Below the pieces are notes generated by a model. That model was not told the DNA's origin. It was given only the letters and a program-made list of their open reading frames with translations, and did no database searches. Shown here piece after piece: positions 21,066-28,650 of a DNA stretch of 64,000 nucleotides; the first letter of the stretch is position 1, and every line of letters starts with the position of its first letter. The position numbers and the translations under genes were made by a program. Origin of the DNA: an uncultured Actinomycetes bacterium (GTDB taxonomy: Bacteria > Actinomycetota > UBA4738 > HRBIN12); NCBI GenBank assembly GCA_963777495.1, contig CAVZQM010000004.1, positions 426,715-490,714 of the forward strand. The letters run 5' to 3'.

Positions 21066-22133
21066 TTACACAACCCCTTCCAGGCGGCCCGCCAGCCGAT
21101 CGAACGCTCTCCCGGGCCGGCTGCGTGCCCCAAGGAGCCGGCCATGATCCTGCGCTCGCGTCGCGCGCCGGTCGAACGGCACGACCGCGAGCGGCTCGCA
21201 ACCGAACACGCGCGCGACATCCCGCGGCGTGATCTCCGCGCGGGATGCGCGATTCACGACGAACCCGAGCTTCCCGTCGACGCCGAACGGTCGGAGCGCG
21301 TCCACCGCGCGTTTGGACGAGCGGAACGACAGGACGTCGAGCGCCAGCACCTCGACGATCCGGTCCGCCGTCTCACACCCAACGAGCGTGAACGCGTCGA
21401 CCGCGTGCGGCACGTGCAGGACGATCACGTCCGCCGCCGTCGCCGCGACATCCACCACCCGTCGAACGAACGCCGCCTCGATCGCCGGCATGTTCGGCGG
21501 CGGGGAGAGCAGGACCCGGAACGCCTCGGGGTGGGTCCAGTACGTGTCGTCCAGATGCGTCGTCGTGAGCTCGGGACCGAGGGGTGCCAGATCGGCGAGG
21601 GAATGGACGTCCTGCTCGGGTGCCCCGACGGCCGCACCCACCTCGCCGTAGAGAGGGTCGGCGTCGATCAGCACGCAGGCCCTCCCCCTCCGGGCGAACG
21701 CCCGCGCTAGGTGGGTCGCCACGAACGTGCTTCCCGCGCCACCTCGGGCGGCGTGGACGGCGATCACCGTGGCGCGCCGCTCGAGCAACGCGGGACCGGC
21801 GCGGCTGGCGGCGGCCGCCGCCGACAGCGCCTCGCGATCGGCCGGCCAGACGAAGAACCCATCCGCGCCGGCACGGATCGCGGCTCGTAACGCCCCAACG
21901 GATTCGCGGGTGTCCACGGCCAGGAACGGCGGCGTCCGGGTCACGTCCACCACCACCGAGGGTTGCCCGACGACCGCGTCGGGTTCGAGCTGGCGGAGCG
22001 CCTCGATCAGCTGGCGGTCGTCGGCCGCGGTGGCCACCACCCGGGCATGCCCGCTCCGGTCGAGGAAGTGCATGACCTCCTCGGCGACATCATGCTGCTC
22101 CATGGCCAGCACGATCCTGGCGACTTGGTCCAT
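21066..22133 (-). CDS. CpaE/TadZ-like protein (receiver-like N-domain + ParA/MinD-type ATPase)
   Basis: AAGGAGG ribosome-binding site before the ATG at 22133. The sequence contains IAVHAARGGAGSTFVATHLA (deviant Walker A) ...VLIDAD... and resembles Rv3660c-type proteins at the head of actinobacterial Tad loci. The gene is intact. Confidence 0.75.
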   Translation of the reverse strand: MDQVARIVLAMEQHDVAEEVMHFLDRSGHARVVATAADDRQLIEALRQLEPDAVVGQPSVVVDVTRTPPFLAVDTRESVGALRAAIRAGADGFFVWPADREALSAAAAASRAGPALLERRATVIAVHAARGGAGSTFVATHLARAFARRGRACVLIDADPLYGEVGAAVGAPEQDVHSLADLAPLGPELTTTHLDDTYWTHPEAFRVLLSPPPNMPAIEAAFVRRVVDVAATAADVIVLHVPHAVDAFTLVGCETADRIVEVLALDVLSFRSSKRAVDALRPFGVDGKLGFVVNRASRAEITPRDVARVFGCEPLAVVPFDRRATRAQDHGRLLGARSRPGRAFDRLAGRLEGVV

Positions 22134-22281
22134 GTTGCCCCTCCTTTGCGCCACGAGCGATCGCTGAACGAGCGGGAGAGGCTGCAGGCTGAAGACCACT
22201 TCGCGAGTACGTCGGCACCATATCGACGGGTACCGACACGAACACGCGGGCGCGGCTGGACCGCGCTCCGCGGAAGGGAGC

Positions 22282-22330
22282 GGGTCGCCGGCCGGGGTTG
22301 ACGCACGCTATGGACCCCGACCGGCGACCC
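22282..22330 (-). terminator. Strong hairpin between the repeat-protein gene and the cpaE-like gene
   Basis: GGGTCGCCGGCCGGGG (22282-22297) pairs with CCCCGACCGGCGACCC (22315-22330). This is a 16-bp inverted repeat with one mismatch and a 17-nt loop. A weakly T-rich tract follows on the minus strand. Confidence 0.4.
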
Positions 22331-22388: not shown

Positions 22389-23888
22389 CTATCCGATCCC
22401 TTGGATCTGGCCGATCGCCTGATCGGTCAGGTTGACGTTGCCCGCGCCGGCGAAGGTCGTCGCGGTGTTCGACTGGTCGACGTCGCCGCCCGAACCGGGC
22501 GACAGCAGGCTGAACGGCTGATCCAGGTTGCTCTGGCTCGTCTCCGCGTTCGCCGAAGCGTCCTGACTCGTGTCGTTCGTGTTGCTGCCGGTCTGCGACT
22601 GGTCGACGTCGCCGCCATGGCTCGATCCGCCACAGCCGCAACTGCCGTCGCTCCCATGCCCGTTCGAACCCGAGGAGTGCGGCCCCTTCGTGTCCGCGCT
22701 CTGCTCCTGCTCGACCGACTGCTGGGTGTCGTTCTGGTTGTAGGCACCCGCCGTGGTGGTGGCGTCGTTGCTCTGGCTCACGTCACCGCCGTTGGCGTTC
22801 GGGCTCAGGATCGCGATCGGCTGGTTGACGTTCCACTGCTCCGTGGAGGCGTCCGCCGAGGCGTCCTGATCGGTGCTGTTGGAGTTGCTGCCCGACTGGT
22901 CCTGACTGACGTCACCGCCACAGCCGCAGCCGTGGCCGCCGGTCTGAGCATCCTGGCTCTGCTCGACGGACTGGTCGGTCTCGTTCCAGTTGCCCGCCGT
23001 CGCCGTGGTGGTCGCGTCGTTGGACTGGTCGACGTCTCCTCCGTTGGCGTTCGGGCTCAGGATCGCGATCGGCGCGTTGATGTTCCACTGTTCGGTGGAA
23101 GCGTTCGCCGTCGCGTCCTGCTCCGTGCTGTTGTCGTTCGAGCCGTCCTGGCTCTGGGTCACGTCCCCGGCACCGCCGCATCGGCATGAGCCGCCGGTCG
23201 TTGCCGACTGCTCTTGGCCGATCCACTGATCGGTCTCGTTGACGTTGACCGCCTCGGCCGAGGTGTCGGCGGAGTTCGACTGATCGACGTCGCCGCCACC
23301 GTGACCCTCGCATCCGCAGGGCGGGTGGCTGCCACCATCACCGTCGCAACCGCATGACGGGTGGTAGCCACCGTCACCCTCGCATCTGCACGGGGGGTGG
23401 TAGCCGTCGAAGCCGAACCCCAGAACGCTGATCGGCGCGTTGACGTTCCACTGTGTCGTGGAAGCGTTCGCATCCGACGACTGGGTCGTCTCGTTGTCGT
23501 TCGAGGCCTGTTGGCTCTGATCCACGTCGCCGCCGCCACACGTGTGGCAGCCGGATCCGCCCGACTTCGCCTTCTGCGACTGTGAGACGCCCTGGTCGGT
23601 CGCGTTCGCGTTGCCGGCCCAGGCCGTGGTGGTGGCGTCGTTCGACTGCGTGACGTCACCGCCGTTGGCGCCCGGACTCAGGATCGCGATCGGCACGTTG
23701 ACGTTCCACTGCTCCGTGGAAGCGTTCGCCGTCGCATCCTGGTCCGTGGTGTTGGTGTTGCTGCCTTGCTGCGTCTGTTGGAGGACGCCGCCCAGACCCG
23801 AGGCACCTGCTGCCCCCGCGGTCGTGACCAGCGTTACCCCCGCGAGCGCGGCCGACAGCAGCGCTCGTTGAAGCCATCTGGATCTCAT
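22389..23888 (-). CDS. Secreted Q/N/D/T-rich repeat protein with CxC/CxxC and His-Cys-rich inserts (uncharacterised)
   Basis: AAGGAG ribosome-binding site and a signal peptide MRSRWLQRALLSAALAGVTLVTTAGAAGA. Five imperfect units follow: STEQWNVN.PIAILSP.ANGGDV.QSNDATTTA.AGN.N.TDQ.V.Q.Q....GG..C.CGG.GDV.Q.Q.GSN.N.T.QDA.A.A. The 499-aa ORF is intact. Confidence 0.8.
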   Translation of the reverse strand: MRSRWLQRALLSAALAGVTLVTTAGAAGASGLGGVLQQTQQGSNTNTTDQDATANASTEQWNVNVPIAILSPGANGGDVTQSNDATTTAWAGNANATDQGVSQSQKAKSGGSGCHTCGGGDVDQSQQASNDNETTQSSDANASTTQWNVNAPISVLGFGFDGYHPPCRCEGDGGYHPSCGCDGDGGSHPPCGCEGHGGGDVDQSNSADTSAEAVNVNETDQWIGQEQSATTGGSCRCGGAGDVTQSQDGSNDNSTEQDATANASTEQWNINAPIAILSPNANGGDVDQSNDATTTATAGNWNETDQSVEQSQDAQTGGHGCGCGGDVSQDQSGSNSNSTDQDASADASTEQWNVNQPIAILSPNANGGDVSQSNDATTTAGAYNQNDTQQSVEQEQSADTKGPHSSGSNGHGSDGSCGCGGSSHGGDVDQSQTGSNTNDTSQDASANAETSQSNLDQPFSLLSPGSGGDVDQSNTATTFAGAGNVNLTDQAIGQIQGIG

Positions 23889-23953
23889 CGATATCTCCTT
23901 CTGTTCGAGCGTGCGACCCGTCGAGACGACGGATCGCGTTCAACACACCGGCG

Positions 23954-25018
23954 TCAGCCGGGACGCTCGACCAGAGAGAGGAAGGGGTTCGGAGCCCGCG
24001 CGTCGGCGAACGGCCGGAGCCATCGGCGCATGCCGACCACGAGCGCCATCGCGGCGGCCAGGAACGCCGCGAACAGTGAGAGACCGTGTCCACCGGTCTC
24101 CGGAGATCCGCTCGAAGGAGCGGACGAGAAGCCCGCCGGGAACCACTCGGGCAGGATGTTGGAGGTCGGAGCCGACCCTCCGAGGTCGATCACGCGACCG
24201 CCGATCGACGTGCCGTCCCCCGGCCAAGGCAAGGGGATCGTCGGAGCCGACGGCTGGTCGGGCGTCCGGGGCCCGGCGTGGATGGGCGGAACAGGCTCAC
24301 CAGGGGGGCCGCCGGGCAGGGCCGGCCCGTCAGGGTCAGTCGGCGCGGCGGGAGGATCGACCGCCGGAGGTTCCGCGGTGGCGCCGGGTCCCGCGGGCTC
24401 GAGCCACGGCGGCGACCCGGTGGGGAGTTCGCCGATCGTCTCGACCACATCGTCCAGCACGGCTCCGACCGATCCGTCGATGCCGTCCTGCCGGTGACGA
24501 TCCTCCACCGTGCCGGTGACGACCTCCACCGTGCCGGTGACGACCTCCACCGTGCCGGTGACGACCTCCACCGTGCCGGTGACGACCTCCTCCGTGCCGG
24601 TGACGACCTCCTCCACCGTGCCGGTGACGACGTCGGTGACGGCAGGGAGTTCGTCGGTGACCTGATCGACGACGCCCGTCACGGCCTGGGAGGCATCTCC
24701 CACCGCTTCCGTCGCGTCGTCCGTCACGTCGCCGACCGTGTCGAGGACACCCCCGACCGTCTCGTCCACCGTGGGCTCGGTCGCCTCCAAGGCGGTGCCG
24801 GCCGTGTCGACAGCCGTGTCCACGGCTCCCCCGACATCCTCCACCGCTCCGCCCACGCCCTCGACGGCTCCGGTGAGCACACCGCCCGTCATGTCGCCGA
24901 TATCCGCCCTGGCCTTGCCCGGCGCCAGCACCAGGATGGCGAGCACGGCGCCGGCGAGCACGATGACGCGCACCGCCAATCGCACGTACTGGGAGATCGC
25001 TATGGACGCTCCGCTCAT
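23954..25018 (-). CDS. Surface protein with V/T/G/E/D-rich repeats, Pro-rich spacer and PETG-type C-terminal anchor-like signal
   Basis: N-terminal TM/signal segment (VRVIVLAGAVLAILVLAPGKARA), a (VVTGTVE)n tract, a proline-rich segment, and a C-terminal SPETGGHGLSLFAAFLAAAMALVVGMRRW. Confidence 0.7.
   Translation of the reverse strand: MSGASIAISQYVRLAVRVIVLAGAVLAILVLAPGKARADIGDMTGGVLTGAVEGVGGAVEDVGGAVDTAVDTAGTALEATEPTVDETVGGVLDTVGDVTDDATEAVGDASQAVTGVVDQVTDELPAVTDVVTGTVEEVVTGTEEVVTGTVEVVTGTVEVVTGTVEVVTGTVEDRHRQDGIDGSVGAVLDDVVETIGELPTGSPPWLEPAGPGATAEPPAVDPPAAPTDPDGPALPGGPPGEPVPPIHAGPRTPDQPSAPTIPLPWPGDGTSIGGRVIDLGGSAPTSNILPEWFPAGFSSAPSSGSPETGGHGLSLFAAFLAAAMALVVGMRRWLRPFADARAPNPFLSLVERPG
24491..24640. 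repeat. 21-bp tandem repeat (about 6-7 copies, unit ccggtgacgacctccaccgtg)
   Basis: The repeat is read directly from the sequence. It encodes the VVTGTVE heptad tract of the surface protein on the minus strand. Confidence 0.9.
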
Positions 25019-25164
25019 CGGTGTCCTCTCGATGAAATCCGCGGCCGGGGGACCGCGGTCACGTGCGTCCGGGGAAGGCTACCGCGCATCCCCCGGAACG
25101 CGCAAGTACCCACGTCACCGGCCTAGTCCAAGTGATCGATGCGTGCCACGACCCTTCGCCCGAC

Positions 25165-28100
25165 ATGGCCGTCGCTAGACTCGTCGCCGTGATCGTCTGC
25201 CCCCGATGCGGCACGAAGAATCCGGAAGGCGCCCGGTTCTGCCTGAACTGCGGGTCGCCTCTCGAAAACGTGTCCACCGGCGAAGAGCGCAAGGTCATCA
25301 CGGTCGTCTTCTGCGATCTGGTCGGCTTCACGGAACGCTCCGATCAGGCCGACCCCGAGGACGTCAAGGCGATGCTTCGCGTGTACCACACGCTGCTGAA
25401 ACGCACGATCGACCACTTCGGCGGGATGGTCGACAAGTTCATCGGCGACGCGGTGCTGGGTGTGTTCGGCGCGCCGGTGGGACACGAGGACGACCCCGAG
25501 CGCGCCATCCGCGCCGCGCTGCAGATCCTGGACGACGTCGAGGAAGCGAATCGGGCGCAACCCGGCCTGGAGCTGGCCGTCCGCATCGGGATCAACACCG
25601 GCGAGGCGGTGATCGCGTTCGGCCAAGGACCGCAGATCGGCGAGAGCGTGACGGGTGACGTCGTGAACACCGCGTCGCGACTGCAGAACGTGGCGACGAC
25701 CGGGACCATCGTCGTCGGCGAGGCCACGTACCACGCCACGTCCGCCGTCTTCGAGTACGACGAGCTCCCGCCGGTCACGGTGAAGGGCAAGGCGGACGCG
25801 CTGGCCATCTGGCGGCCGCTCCACGCCCGCAGCTTGATCGGCATGGACGTCCGCGAGCAGCAGCGCACCACGTTCGTGGGGCGTGCCGAGGAATCGGCAA
25901 CGCTCCGCCAGGTCTTCCGGAAGATGGAGGAGTTCCGCGAGCAGCTCGCGCGCGTGGGCTCCCCGCAACTGGTGACGGTGATCGGCGAGCCGGGCGTGGG
26001 CAAGACCCGCCTGCTGCGCGAGTTCTCCACGTTCATCGACGAGCTGCCCGACCTGATCCGCTGGCGCCAGGGACGCTGCTTGCCGTACGGCGACGGCGTG
26101 GGCTTCTGGGCGTTCGGCGAGATCGTCAAGGCGCAGGCCGGCATCCTGGACTCCGACGATCCCGGGCAGGCCGCGGCGAAGCTCGCCGAGGCGGTCGACG
26201 CGGTGGTCGACGATCCCACGCAACGTGACTGGATCCGACGGCGCTTGGCTCCGCTGATCGGGGCCGGCGCCGACTCGACGGACGTCCCGCGCGAGGAGCT
26301 GTTCACCGCGTGGCGCCGGTTCGTCGAGGCGCTGGCGTTCGAGGGCCGGCTGGTGTTGGTCTTCGAGGACCTGCATTGGGCCGACGTCCCGATGCTCGAG
26401 TTCATCGAGCACCTGATCGACGCCGGCGAGCGCCCGTTCATGGTGGTGTGCGCGGCGCGGCCCGAGATCTACGACCGGTACCCGCAGTGGGGCGAGAGCC
26501 GGCGCAACGCCATCCGGATGGCGCTCCCGCCGCTCACGGACAGCGAGACCGCGGTGCTGATCTCGTCGTTGCTCGAGCGCGCCGTCCTGCCCGCCACGAC
26601 GCAGTCCATCCTGATCGAGCGGTCGGGGGGAAACCCGCTGTTCGCCGAGGAGTTCATCCAGCTGCTGGTCGACCGTGGACTTATCGACCTGGAAAGCCAC
26701 GATCGCCCGGTCGCCGAGCTGCACGACATCCCCGTGCCCGAGTCGCTGCACGCATTGATCAGCTCGCGACTGGATCAGCTCCCCCACGAGGACAAGACGC
26801 TCCTGCAGGACGCGGCGGTGATCGGCAAGGTCTTCTGGTCCGGCGCGCTCGCCGCGTTGTGCGGGTGCGACGAACCGTCGATCGCCGCACGCATCGAAGA
26901 CGTGGTGCGCCGCGAGCTGGTGCGTCCGAACCGCGCGTCCAACCTGCAGGGGCAGACGGAGTACACGTTCTGGCACGCGCTGATCCGCGACGTGGCGTAC
27001 GGCCAGATCCCCCGCGCGGGGCGCGAGCTGAAACACCTGACCGTGGCGCGCTGGCTGAAGGAGACCGTATCCGACCGCATCTCGGATTTCGCCGAGGAGC
27101 TCGCCTACCACTACGGCGAGGCGCTGGACCTGGCCGAGGCGTCGGGGATCGGGGTCGCGCCCGACGTGCGGGCCGAGGCCGCCGGCGGGTTCCTGCTCGC
27201 CGGTGAACGCGCGGCGGGGCTCGACGCGGATCGGGCGACGGGCCACTTCCAGCGCGCCCTCAGCCTGATGACGGCCGATCACCCGCTGCGGCCGCGCGCG
27301 GCGGCGCGGGCGGCCGAGATGGCCGAGGCGCGTGGAGACTACGAGGAGGGCGAGCAGCTCTACGTCGCGGCGATCACCGGGTACCGGGTTCTCGGCGACA
27401 CGCTCGGCCTGGGCGAGGCGCTCGGCCTGCTCGCCCGCACGCATGCGCGCCGGGGCGAGAACGCGCGCGCGGAGCAGCTCTTGACCGAAGCCATCGAGGT
27501 CCTGGAGCGGGAGCCGCCCAGTCGCGAGCTCGCCCGCATCTACTCGCGCAAGACCGGCGAGCTGCTCACCGGCGATCGCAACGCCGAGTGCCTGGAGTGG
27601 GCGGAGAAGACGCTCGAGCTGGCCACGCGTCTGAACCTGCGCGACGAATACGTCCGGGCGCTGCAGTTCCGGGGCTCGGCGCGGTGCGAACTGGGTGACG
27701 AGCGTGGCCTGGACGACCTGAAGGAGGCGATCCGACTGGGCGAGGAGGCCGGCCTCGGGCAGGCGCTGGCGCTCGCCCGGGCGAACTACGCGTTCCAGCT
27801 GTGGTTCCGCGAGGGTCCGGCCGCGGCTCTCCAGGTCTGGCGCGAGTCCCAGACCACGGCGGAGACCCACGGGTTCGTGGGTCTGGCACAGATGGCCCGG
27901 ATGGGACAGCTGGAAACGCTCTTCGACCTGGGCCGATGGGACGAGGTCCTCACGATCTGCCGCCAGATCCACGCGTGGATCCGACCGCGGGACGAGGGCA
28001 CCGAGCTGGGCGTGTACGCCACCATCTTCGAGAGCTGGGTGCACTTGCGACGCGGGGAGACCGACGAGCTGTCGGTCGCCGATCGATTCCTCGACCGGGC

Positions 28101-28650
28101 GCTGCCGTTCGGCGGGGAGTTCGGCGCACCCGCCGCCCTCTTGGTGGCGGAGACCCGGCGCGAAGCGGGAGACCGGGCAGGGGCACGGCTCGCGCTCGAC
28201 CGGTTCGTCGAGATCACCGAGTCGTCGCCGAACTTCCGGGCGCTGTTCGCCCCCATCGCGGTCCGGGCGCTGGTCGCGCTCGGCGACGCCGATGGCGCCG
28301 AGCGGTTGATCCCCGACCACGCCGACGCCCGGACGAAGCGCCACCGCGTGAGCCTGCTGACGGCCAGGGCGGTGGTCGCGGAGGCGCGGGGCCGATACCC
28401 CATGGCGTTCGACGGCTACCGGCAGGCGATCGCGCAGTGGCGCACGCACGGGTTCCAGCTGGAGCTGGGCCTGACGCGGATCGGTGCCGCTCGGTGCCTG
28501 CTGGCGCTGGACCGGCGCGACGAGGCGGCCGACGCACTGGCCGAGGCGCGCGACGTCCTGCGTCCACTCCGCGCGGCGCCGGCCCTGGCCGAGATCGCCG
28601 ACCTGCTGGGCAACGACTTCGAGCATCAGCTGGATCCGACCGGGGCGTGA
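25165..28650 (+). CDS. Zinc-ribbon + class III adenylate/guanylate cyclase + AAA/STAND NTPase + TPR-like signalling protein
   Basis: Sequence CPRCGTKNPEGARFCLNCG, then the cyclase core VITVVFCDLVGFTERSD...KFIGDAVLGVFGAP...RIGINTGEAV...GDVVNTASRLQ. A P-loop (VIGEPGVGKTRLL) and a long helical repeat C-terminus follow. The gene is intact. Confidence 0.9.
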   Translation: MAVARLVAVIVCPRCGTKNPEGARFCLNCGSPLENVSTGEERKVITVVFCDLVGFTERSDQADPEDVKAMLRVYHTLLKRTIDHFGGMVDKFIGDAVLGVFGAPVGHEDDPERAIRAALQILDDVEEANRAQPGLELAVRIGINTGEAVIAFGQGPQIGESVTGDVVNTASRLQNVATTGTIVVGEATYHATSAVFEYDELPPVTVKGKADALAIWRPLHARSLIGMDVREQQRTTFVGRAEESATLRQVFRKMEEFREQLARVGSPQLVTVIGEPGVGKTRLLREFSTFIDELPDLIRWRQGRCLPYGDGVGFWAFGEIVKAQAGILDSDDPGQAAAKLAEAVDAVVDDPTQRDWIRRRLAPLIGAGADSTDVPREELFTAWRRFVEALAFEGRLVLVFEDLHWADVPMLEFIEHLIDAGERPFMVVCAARPEIYDRYPQWGESRRNAIRMALPPLTDSETAVLISSLLERAVLPATTQSILIERSGGNPLFAEEFIQLLVDRGLIDLESHDRPVAELHDIPVPESLHALISSRLDQLPHEDKTLLQDAAVIGKVFWSGALAALCGCDEPSIAARIEDVVRRELVRPNRASNLQGQTEYTFWHALIRDVAYGQIPRAGRELKHLTVARWLKETVSDRISDFAEELAYHYGEALDLAEASGIGVAPDVRAEAAGGFLLAGERAAGLDADRATGHFQRALSLMTADHPLRPRAAARAAEMAEARGDYEEGEQLYVAAITGYRVLGDTLGLGEALGLLARTHARRGENARAEQLLTEAIEVLEREPPSRELARIYSRKTGELLTGDRNAECLEWAEKTLELATRLNLRDEYVRALQFRGSARCELGDERGLDDLKEAIRLGEEAGLGQALALARANYAFQLWFREGPAAALQVWRESQTTAETHGFVGLAQMARMGQLETLFDLGRWDEVLTICRQIHAWIRPRDEGTELGVYATIFESWVHLRRGETDELSVADRFLDRALPFGGEFGAPAALLVAETRREAGDRAGARLALDRFVEITESSPNFRALFAPIAVRALVALGDADGAERLIPDHADARTKRHRVSLLTARAVVAEARGRYPMAFDGYRQAIAQWRTHGFQLELGLTRIGAARCLLALDRRDEAADALAEARDVLRPLRAAPALAEIADLLGNDFEHQLDPTGA

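Follow-up and report, generated by a model that had tools for sequence, protein, structure and literature searches.

The stretch analysed here, 64,000 nucleotides of an uncultured Actinomycetes bacterium (contig CAVZQM010000004.1, positions 426,715 to 490,714; hereafter the window), carries on its minus strand an intact open reading frame (ORF) for 499 amino acids, read with its ATG start from both the ORF list and the sequence. Its product is an apparently secreted repeat protein with regular ladders of Gln, Asn, Thr and Ala, and a second gene lies directly upstream of it. We posit, with moderate confidence, that a monoderm actinobacterium secretes the repeat protein as the subunit of an amyloid-like (cross-beta) polymer at its outer surface. 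The features of the gene are as follows (AF2, AlphaFold2):

22389..23888 (including the stop codon), minus strand: gene of the repeat protein, 499 aa, secreted, with Q/N/T/A ladders (ORF list, sequence, homologues)
23895..23901, minus strand: Shine-Dalgarno sequence GAAGGAG, 6 nt before the ATG (read from the sequence)
23799..23888, minus strand: putative signal peptide, residues 1 to about 30, with cleavage after AGA placed by eye (sequence; N-terminal consensus kept across homologues)
23574..23786, minus strand: unit 1, residues 35-105, made of strand A, the hydrophobic arc NVNVPIAILSPGANGG and strand B (motif anchors; AF2 strands 36-64, 67-69 and 79-109)
23532..23573, minus strand: linker 1, residues 106-119, with CHTC (motif scan)
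23406..23531, minus strand: strand A and start of the arc of unit 2, residues 120-161 (motif scan, AF2)
23295..23405, minus strand: His/Cys-rich insert in arc 1 of unit 2, residues 162-198, three times GYHPxCxCxGDG (Tandem Repeats Finder, Cys positions)
23205..23294, minus strand: strand B of unit 2, residues 199-228 (motif scan, AF2)
23169..23204, minus strand: linker 2, residues 229-240, with CRC (motif scan)
22950..23168, minus strand: unit 3, residues 241-313, with the highest predicted local distance difference test score (pLDDT, about 74-77) (motif scan, AF2)
22917..22949, minus strand: linker 3, residues 314-324, with HGCGC (motif scan)
22698..22916, minus strand: unit 4, residues 325-397 (motif scan, AF2)
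22614..22697, minus strand: linker 4, residues 398-425, Gly/Ser/His-rich, with CGC (motif scan)
22392..22613, minus strand: unit 5, residues 426-499, terminal, with the divergent arc QPFSLLSP and its last strand forming the protein end (motif scan)

The N-terminus, MRSRWLQRALLSAALAGVTLVTTAGAAGA|SG, resembles a Sec signal peptide as judged by eye, and across the family the first unit starts at median residue 35, that is, straight after the signal peptide. Five units of about 75-110 aa were delimited by a motif scan in the window protein, each composed of an A-half (GDVxQSQxxSNxNxTxQDAxAxAsTEQWNVNxPIAILSPxANG), a B-half (GDVxQSNDATTTAxAGNxNxTDQxVxQxQ) and a Gly/Cys linker. All 14 Cys are paired, in one CHTC (114/117) and six CxC (167/169, 179/181, 191/193, 235/237, 321/323 and 417/419). 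The composition is dominated by small and polar residues (G 14%, S 12%, A 11%, Q 10%, T 10%, N 9%, D 9%), with 3 Lys and 5 Arg, three of the latter within the signal peptide, against 59 Asp and Glu. At the DNA level the His/Cys-rich insert of unit 2 has a period of 36 nt (3.1 copies, 80% matches in Tandem Repeats Finder); it is predicted to be disordered by AF2, and arc 1 of relatives also holds CxC inserts at the same place. An earlier note on this DNA, made from the sequence alone, had reported an intact ORF with ribosome-binding site and signal peptide, five imperfect units with Cys-bearing Gly-rich linkers, 14 Cys that all sit in CxC or CxxC pairs, and an acidic, amide-rich composition with scarce Lys and Arg. 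All of this is borne out by the sequence, the motif scan and the residue counts, and the triplicated insert that it had placed at 23296-23412 is a real tandem array, which maps to 23295-23405. A contig that is 98.9% identical to the window (ENA ERZ25039494 contig_12182) encodes a repeat protein of likewise 499 aa with 8 substitutions.

The repeat protein belongs to a large, unnamed family without annotation. The homologue search returned at least 657 members, all named hypothetical or unnamed, and a profile search of 1.84 billion representatives at 50% identity gave 1,007 matches at E<=1e-3, 647 at E<=1e-10 and 305 at E<=1e-30. Its hosts, all metagenomic, belong to Thermoleophilia, Acidimicrobiia and related Actinomycetota. 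When a single genome for each GTDB species was scanned with a narrower homologue alignment, 58 loci emerged, all in metagenome-assembled genomes, mostly of Solirubrobacterales, Solirubrobacteraceae, Conexibacter and Baekduia, with some Acidimicrobiia and unclassified Actinomycetota, one Miltoncostaeaceae genome and one weak 'Bacillota' match. A second, distant subfamily of Gaiellaceae type, with proteins of about 800 aa and the arc IRVLSPGDDGDVSQSN, was found in the Gaiellaceae genome P0085 and on other metagenomic contigs. The number of units across the family ranges from 3 to more than 10.

The earlier claim that no described family shows this combination of features holds: the repeat protein had no real match among the Pfam, NCBIfam and PADLOC models, and the family profile had none at E<=10 among the PDB sequences, CsgA (8c50) included. 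The literature searched for the family contained no description of it, and the look-up of cluster members revealed no names, accessions or cultured source. Three existing labels were rejected, namely a Pfam 'Chisel' match (PF15355) as spurious (22.6 bits against a cut-off of 27), Inhibitor_I78 (PF11720) marks on relatives as sub-threshold motif coincidences, and the Joint Genome Institute (JGI) name 'ribosomal protein L24' on P0095, P0104 and P0107 as spurious. Such labels on family members are mis-annotations that could propagate.

Conservation in the family is periodic. A hidden Markov model (HMM) of the unit gathered 1,112 units from 168 homologues, of which 971 unique units were used for conservation and 1,047 for indels. 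The unit core comprises 67 model positions plus a linker, with strand segments of about 22 and about 25 residues. Conservation is strictly period-2, with about 4 bits at even (core) positions and about 1 bit at the alternate, odd ones. Q or N makes up at least 96% at positions 2, 12, 22, 24, 42, 44, 54, 56, 60, 64 and 66, Ala occupies 14, 16, 18, 46, 50 and 52, and Thr 20 and 58. Before the arc the even positions read Q2, Q/N6, A/N8, T/N10, Q12, A14, A16, A18, T20, Q22, N24, N26 and P28, and after it Q42, N44, A46, S/T48, A50, A52, N54, N56, T58, Q60, A/V62, Q64 and Q66. Odd positions are variable and acidic, mostly D/E/S/T, and the arc keeps the hydrophobics V/I29, V/I31, L32 and V40, plus G38. 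Indels are essentially nil in the strand segments; length varies in the arc (after 22, 34 and 37) and between units. Phe occurs in the arc of 46% of last units and of 3% of internal ones. We discounted N-glycosylation of the NxT motifs because N and T share one conserved, presumably buried face.

When half A is read against reversed half B, amide ladder lies opposite amide ladder and Ala patch opposite Ala patch. In both subfamilies the covariation of core-face positions is maximal on the antidiagonal i+j=66 (for example 20-46, 16-50, 10-56 and 4-62), and in the window's subfamily the exposed face has no peak there, so that in this class covariation favours an antiparallel facing of A and B for the core face only. 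Mutual information with average product correction (MI-APC) over all units was dominated by the subfamily split, and the analysis per class gave only weak signals.

The Cys residues follow a pattern that is shared throughout the family. Cys occurs in 153 of the 168 proteins and is lacking in 15; 92% of the 1,617 family Cys are paired at a distance of at most 4 residues, CxC being dominant (523 cases of a consecutive spacing of 2), and 81% sit between units. His is found within 6 residues of a Cys in 36% of cases against a background of 10.6%, a 3.4-fold enrichment, so that the paired Cys/His feature noticed earlier in the window protein extends to the whole family. The last linkers of two relatives, P0003 and P0007, carry long His/Cys/Pro arrays, the one in P0003 being six copies of (C)EPNPCHDKC and far larger than the insert in the window; judging from the sequence, nothing else in the family hints as strongly at metal binding. 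Given the period-2 Q/N/T/A ladders, the indel-free strands and the confinement of Cys to loops, a curli-like cross-beta architecture is therefore the best reading.

Structure prediction points in the same direction at low confidence. The full-length AF2 model (alignment of 45 sequences; mean pLDDT 59, predicted template modelling score 0.53) contains ten uninterrupted strands, one for each half-unit and about 30 residues long, and a 3-residue strand in each arc, with linkers and insert disordered. A model of units 3-5 (69 sequences) agrees with it in secondary structure but is less confident (pLDDT 52). In Foldseek searches against PDB the weak matches of the full-length model are all parallel beta-helices or solenoid amyloids, headed by CsgA of P. 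korlensis (8c50, E = 0.14) and including FapC (9u4u), Ag43, pertactin and SufD, and units 3-5 match FapC only (E = 0.023 and 2.1). Over both models the FapC matches have E = 0.023 and 2.6 with template modelling (TM) scores of at most 0.18; FapC (9u4u, 9nqd) is among the nearest PDB folds alongside CsgA and the parallel beta-helices, none of them significant. The earlier note had expected a beta-solenoid if the protein is amyloid- or curli-like; the weak matches are of this kind, but the pLDDT is low and no match is significant. We infer that the repeats may stack in parallel and in register.

The earlier note overlooked the gene immediately upstream at 23954-25018 on the minus strand, which is the conserved partner of the repeat gene:

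23954..25018, minus strand: partner gene, 354 aa, with an N-terminal signal/transmembrane segment, VTGTVEV heptads, a Pro-rich segment and a C-terminal transmembrane anchor plus tail (ORF; synteny)
24489..24631, minus strand: 21-nt repeat in 6.6 tandem copies, coding for the VTGTVEV heptads in the partner stalk (Tandem Repeats Finder)
23957..24121, minus strand: predicted C-terminal domain of the partner, a G/S-rich segment and a transmembrane helix followed by RRWLRPFADARAPNPFLSLVERPG-COOH (alignment of 48 tails)

The partner gene shares the strand of the repeat gene and ends 65 nt before it in the window and typically 60-230 nt before it across loci. A partner was recorded in 56 of 66 loci, equivalent to 54 of the 58 non-duplicate loci with upstream sequence, and was found upstream also in L067, L068 and L069. 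The body of the partner is variable and consists of a signal/transmembrane segment, short tandem repeats (7-11 aa each) and a region rich in Pro. Where the window partner has its VTGTVEV heptads, those of other genomes have tandem repeats of 7-11 aa that are unrelated to them, and the spacer therefore evolves fast. The C-terminus is conserved throughout the 48 aligned tails: PxPvPGG, a G/S/A-rich stretch, a transmembrane helix and RRLRLASEPxRPAPFVLIPERPG-COOH, with an invariant terminal PG; the window partner ends in ...GMRRWLRPFADARAPNPFLSLVERPG. No family match was obtained for the window partner in Pfam, NCBIfam or PADLOC. Against CTERM models, one tail only reached 13 bits with GVDTG_CTERM (cut-off 29) and 11.5 bits with MYXO-CTERM (cut-off 15.85), and full-length partners matched nothing among the CTERM and LPXTG models. 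A database search with the tail profile returned 30 proteins, none with a name other than hypothetical and most of them short gene calls, and the tail occurs once in the window, beside the repeat gene. The idea of a widespread sorting signal was rejected on these two counts. This C-terminal domain is undescribed; it resembles a sorting signal but continues into a cytoplasmic tail that is long and conserved.

In the Gaiellaceae-type subfamily the partners carry the arc motif of the subunit itself, with unit-HMM E-values of 5e-17 (L004) and 3e-12 (L006); in the partners of L067 and L068 it can be recognised by eye. These four partners (L004 7493-9928, L006 8341-9930, L067 3292-4920 and L068 3320-4924) combine Trp ladders (DWSWNWTWDWxC, PWxWTWTFNFCG) with the arc motif NVNVSVRVxSPGDNGxVxQxN. 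Their cassettes are flanked by a divergent extracytoplasmic function (ECF) sigma factor and a HicB-like protein with a C-terminal transmembrane helix, possibly an anti-sigma factor, and are followed by two conserved downstream genes, one for a Pro-rich transmembrane protein and one for a protein of about 460 aa with immunoglobulin-like repeats of the NGWYN type. The regulator pair and the two downstream genes suggest a larger regulated operon in the distant subfamily.

Based on these observations we propose the following model. After Sec export, each unit would fold into one very wide beta-arch, in which strand A (about 22-27 residues) runs antiparallel to strand B (about 25 residues). The conserved faces of A and B would pack as a polar/alanine steric zipper, with Q/N ladders flanking an Ala-on-Ala patch, and the variable, strongly acidic faces would be turned outward. 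Five such arches, stacked in register, would make up a flat beta-solenoid. One end of each rung would be closed by the hydrophobic arc NVNxP-IAIL-SPG and the other by the variable Gly-rich CxC loop, usually with His near, and the CxC/His loops could staple rungs or neighbouring subunits via disulfides or bound metal. Since there is no capping domain at either end, subunits could add head-to-tail and form fibres or sheets outside the cell. The partner, presumably co-transcribed, would be a stalk, tethered to the membrane through its C-terminal transmembrane helix and conserved cytoplasmic tail, that serves as surface anchor or nucleator of the polymer; it is a likely tether and, in one subfamily, possibly a template.

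Several observations weigh against this polymer model. A net charge of about -50 opposes self-association unless counter-ions are bound, AF2 confidence is low for both models, and neither has a significant Foldseek match in PDB, with low TM-scores (<=0.18) throughout. The models also do not appear to separate a parallel stack from an antiparallel hairpin meander, and in the distant subfamily the exposed-face positions covary near i+j=66-68 as well, which would fit hydrogen-bonded hairpins, although alternating unit subtypes may explain it instead. The partner in the window's subfamily lacks a subunit-like motif, and a nucleator role is therefore not indicated there. Furthermore, every family member stems from an uncultured genome. 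A stable fold that does not polymerise, that is, a monomeric all-beta surface or secreted protein (a flat beta-solenoid or long-hairpin sheet) held by the partner and acting as adhesin, as hydration or cation-binding coat or in the manner of a surface layer, would also account for the periodic conservation and the AF2 strands. The extreme acidity (59 D/E against 8 K/R) would suit binding of Ca2+, minerals or water, the distinct arc of the terminal unit could serve as a cap, and the odd-odd couplings of the distant class are compatible with hairpins. We nevertheless regard such a protein as rather unlikely: a non-repeat capping domain is missing at both ends, the number of units is free to vary as in curli, and the conserved face is not a hydrophobic core but polar and small (Q/N/T/A), as is typical of stacked amide ladders. 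The low pLDDT and a composition rich in G, S, Q, N, T and D might also be explained by an intrinsically disordered, low-complexity secreted protein serving as hydrophilic matrix filler. This is quite improbable, as near-invariance at every second residue without a strand indel in more than 1,000 units from hundreds of proteins is unexpected for disordered regions, and the hydrophobics of the arc (V/I29, V/I31, L32, V40) are conserved too. A third view takes the loops as the functional part and the repeats as their display scaffold, making the protein chiefly an extracytoplasmic metal-binding or redox-buffering protein with metallothionein-like CxC/His loops for Cu, Zn or Ni. The dominance of CxC, the enrichment of His near Cys, the threefold GYHPxCxC insert in the window and the sixfold PNPCHDKC array of P0003 are all in its favour, but the 15 members without Cys and the several relatives that lack it in individual linkers are not. 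Moreover, the loops are the least conserved part and the Q/N strands near-invariant, and selection therefore preserves the scaffold, not the loops. Metal binding as the chief role is accordingly unlikely in our view, and fits the polymer model as an add-on, not as a replacement.

The genomic neighbourhood bears on a last alternative, the suggestion in the earlier note that the protein is a matrix or fibre component working with the adjacent Tad pilus. Downstream of the repeat gene and on the same strand, as the note had stated, lie a CpaE-like ATPase gene (21066-22199), a DUF11 adhesin gene and the genes for TadA/B/C and TadE, and in the closest homologue (L001) a Tad locus lies 5.8 kb downstream. 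The strong hairpin noticed earlier between the repeat gene and the CpaE-like gene was confirmed:

22282..22330, minus strand: hairpin with a 17-bp perfect G+C-rich stem, 59 nt past the stop codon (RNA fold, -41.1 kcal/mol, z = -3.4)

All 200 shuffled versions fold less well, and the hairpin is probably a terminator or an mRNA 3' stabiliser that parts the repeat gene from the cpaE-like gene; a terminator scan did not call it because a U-tract is missing. Searches with CpaE and TadA/B/C/E (tblastn) placed Tad genes within 10 kb in only three of the 66 loci, namely the window, L001, where five opposite-strand genes intervene, and L057, where the Tad genes have the opposite orientation. Tad-adjacent homologues in other genomes, by which the earlier note had proposed to judge the link, are thus too few, and the pilus link fails. 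The linkage that is conserved is the one with the upstream partner. We consider an accessory role in the Tad pilus very improbable, and synteny largely refutes it.

All-against-all clustering of the neighbouring ORFs of 64 loci left the upstream partner as the sole conserved neighbour, in a setting that is otherwise lineage-specific housekeeping synteny (5'-3' exonuclease, FtsH, YchF and ABC ATPases, with an ECF sigma factor in about ten loci). Neither among these conserved neighbours nor among those of the window (cyclase, BNR protein, CpaE, DUF11 adhesin and Tad genes) were assembly genes of the csgB/E/F/G type found. The cyclase gene of the window (25063-28650, plus strand) is divergent from the partner gene and encodes a 1,195-aa protein with zinc-ribbon, adenylate/guanylate cyclase, AAA_16 and TPR regions. 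At L007 a cyclase lies upstream and a gene for a cyclic nucleotide monophosphate (cNMP)-binding protein downstream of the cassette; the cyclase link is not conserved across loci. Between 9400 and 21200 on the minus strand of the window, several genes are broken up into more than one frame each, namely those for TadA, TadB, TadC, the DUF11/CLIPPER adhesin (with its split near 19.5 kb) and a sulfatase (at 10.0-12.2 kb). On the 98.9%-identical contig (L066) the adhesin is intact, the partner gene and the cyclase are broken, and 18 gap openings occur in 12.2 kb relative to the window. The frame breaks differ between the two, and we therefore take them for assembly indel errors, probably from long reads, and not for pseudogenes.

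Compared with known systems, the polymer that we propose resembles curli in its working, not in membership. In curli, the curlin repeat has 23 +/- 5 residues with motifs N-$-Psi-$-Psi-$-Q and X-G-X-X arcs, and inward-facing residues are conserved and outward-facing ones variable (PMC10192328). Both proteins are secreted and built of uncapped tandem strand-arc-strand repeats, with conserved N/Q and small residues at alternate positions of the inward face, a variable polar outward face, insertions confined to arcs and a variable number of units (five here, as in CsgA of E. coli); in one subfamily the co-encoded protein bears subunit-like motifs, which is reminiscent of CsgB and CsgA. Yet Curlin_rpt (PF07012) did not match at E<=10 in Pfam-A, nor did the family profile match any PDB sequence. 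The rung is about 75-85 aa with strands of 22-27 residues here, as opposed to 23 +/- 5 aa and 7-residue motifs in curli, and it has a hydrophobic mini-strand in the arc and CxC/His loops. The host is a monoderm actinobacterium without outer-membrane secretion genes of the csgE/F/G type, and the partner has a C-terminal transmembrane anchor.

FapC of Pseudomonas (9u4u, 9nqd) is likewise a Q/N-rich secreted amyloid subunit of imperfect repeats with variable linkers and the best Foldseek match for units 3-5 (E = 0.023). It also has a conserved C-terminal CxxC. However, FapC shows no sequence match, differs in repeat length and motif, has TM-scores of 0.08-0.15 and depends on an outer-membrane fap operon, of which no genes are found here. 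Chaplins of Streptomyces (PF03777) are an actinobacterial, Sec-secreted, amyloid-forming surface system in which a cell-anchored relative tethers secreted subunits, comparable to the arc-motif partners of L004 and L006. The Pfam scan gave no PF03777 match at E<=10, and chaplin domains are hydrophobic and small (about 40 aa), with a single Cys pair, and are not acidic Q/N ladders, the long chaplins being attached by LAXTG and sortase and not by a transmembrane helix with ERPG tail. The family is homologous to none of curli, chaplins and Fap, and its resemblance to curli and chaplins is one of architecture only. Of the amyloid-like idea in the earlier note, the secreted, repetitive, Q/N-rich and cross-beta parts are supported in silico; the protein is not a curli or chaplin homologue.

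The sheath protein SH of M. hungatei offers a further parallel, as its amyloid-like two-sheet beta-arch domain polymerises at the cell surface, and its loop cysteines are proposed to cross-link the assembly by disulfides (PMC10593813). SH is archaeal and unrelated in sequence, and differs in having an alpha/beta cap domain, six non-identical arches, an aromatic and salt-bridged core instead of Q/N/A ladders, and an assembly into rings or hoops around the cell. The partner tail shares with the C-terminal sorting domains PEP-CTERM, MYXO-CTERM, GVDTG-CTERM and LPXTG a G/S-rich segment, a transmembrane helix, an Arg-rich cluster at the C-terminus and a preceding Pro-rich region, but adds after the Arg cluster a conserved tail of about 20 residues ending in (E/D)RPG-COOH.

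Thermoleophilia (Solirubrobacterales, Gaiellales) and Acidimicrobiia rank with the most abundant soil Actinomycetota and with those least represented in culture. The literature searched on surface structures or matrix of these two classes yielded nothing. We tentatively put forward, as a possibility, that the two genes constitute a dedicated, hitherto unrecognised functional-amyloid or sheath system of monoderm soil Actinomycetota of these classes, in which beta-arches of about 75-85 residues would form a ribbon of about 8-10 nm with a Q/N/Ala zipper and redox- or metal-responsive CxC/His loops, with the helix and tail of the partner defining a new membrane-anchoring or sorting domain, and which is unrelated in sequence to curli, Fap, chaplins and TasA. 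If true, it would be an independent, non-homologous addition to the few functional-amyloid systems of bacteria (curli, Fap, chaplins, TasA) and the first for these classes. Its strands, three to four times as long as the curlin motif and held by a nearly purely polar/alanine zipper, would then be a test of how wide a stable beta-arch can be. The regular CxC/His loops may offer intrinsic sites for cross-linking by disulfides or metal, of interest for engineered protein materials, and the invariant (E/D)RPG tail of the partner is a candidate for a new anchoring or sorting signal. Even if the protein does not polymerise, the family would still merit an entry in Pfam, as a repeat fold that is well defined and has no name.

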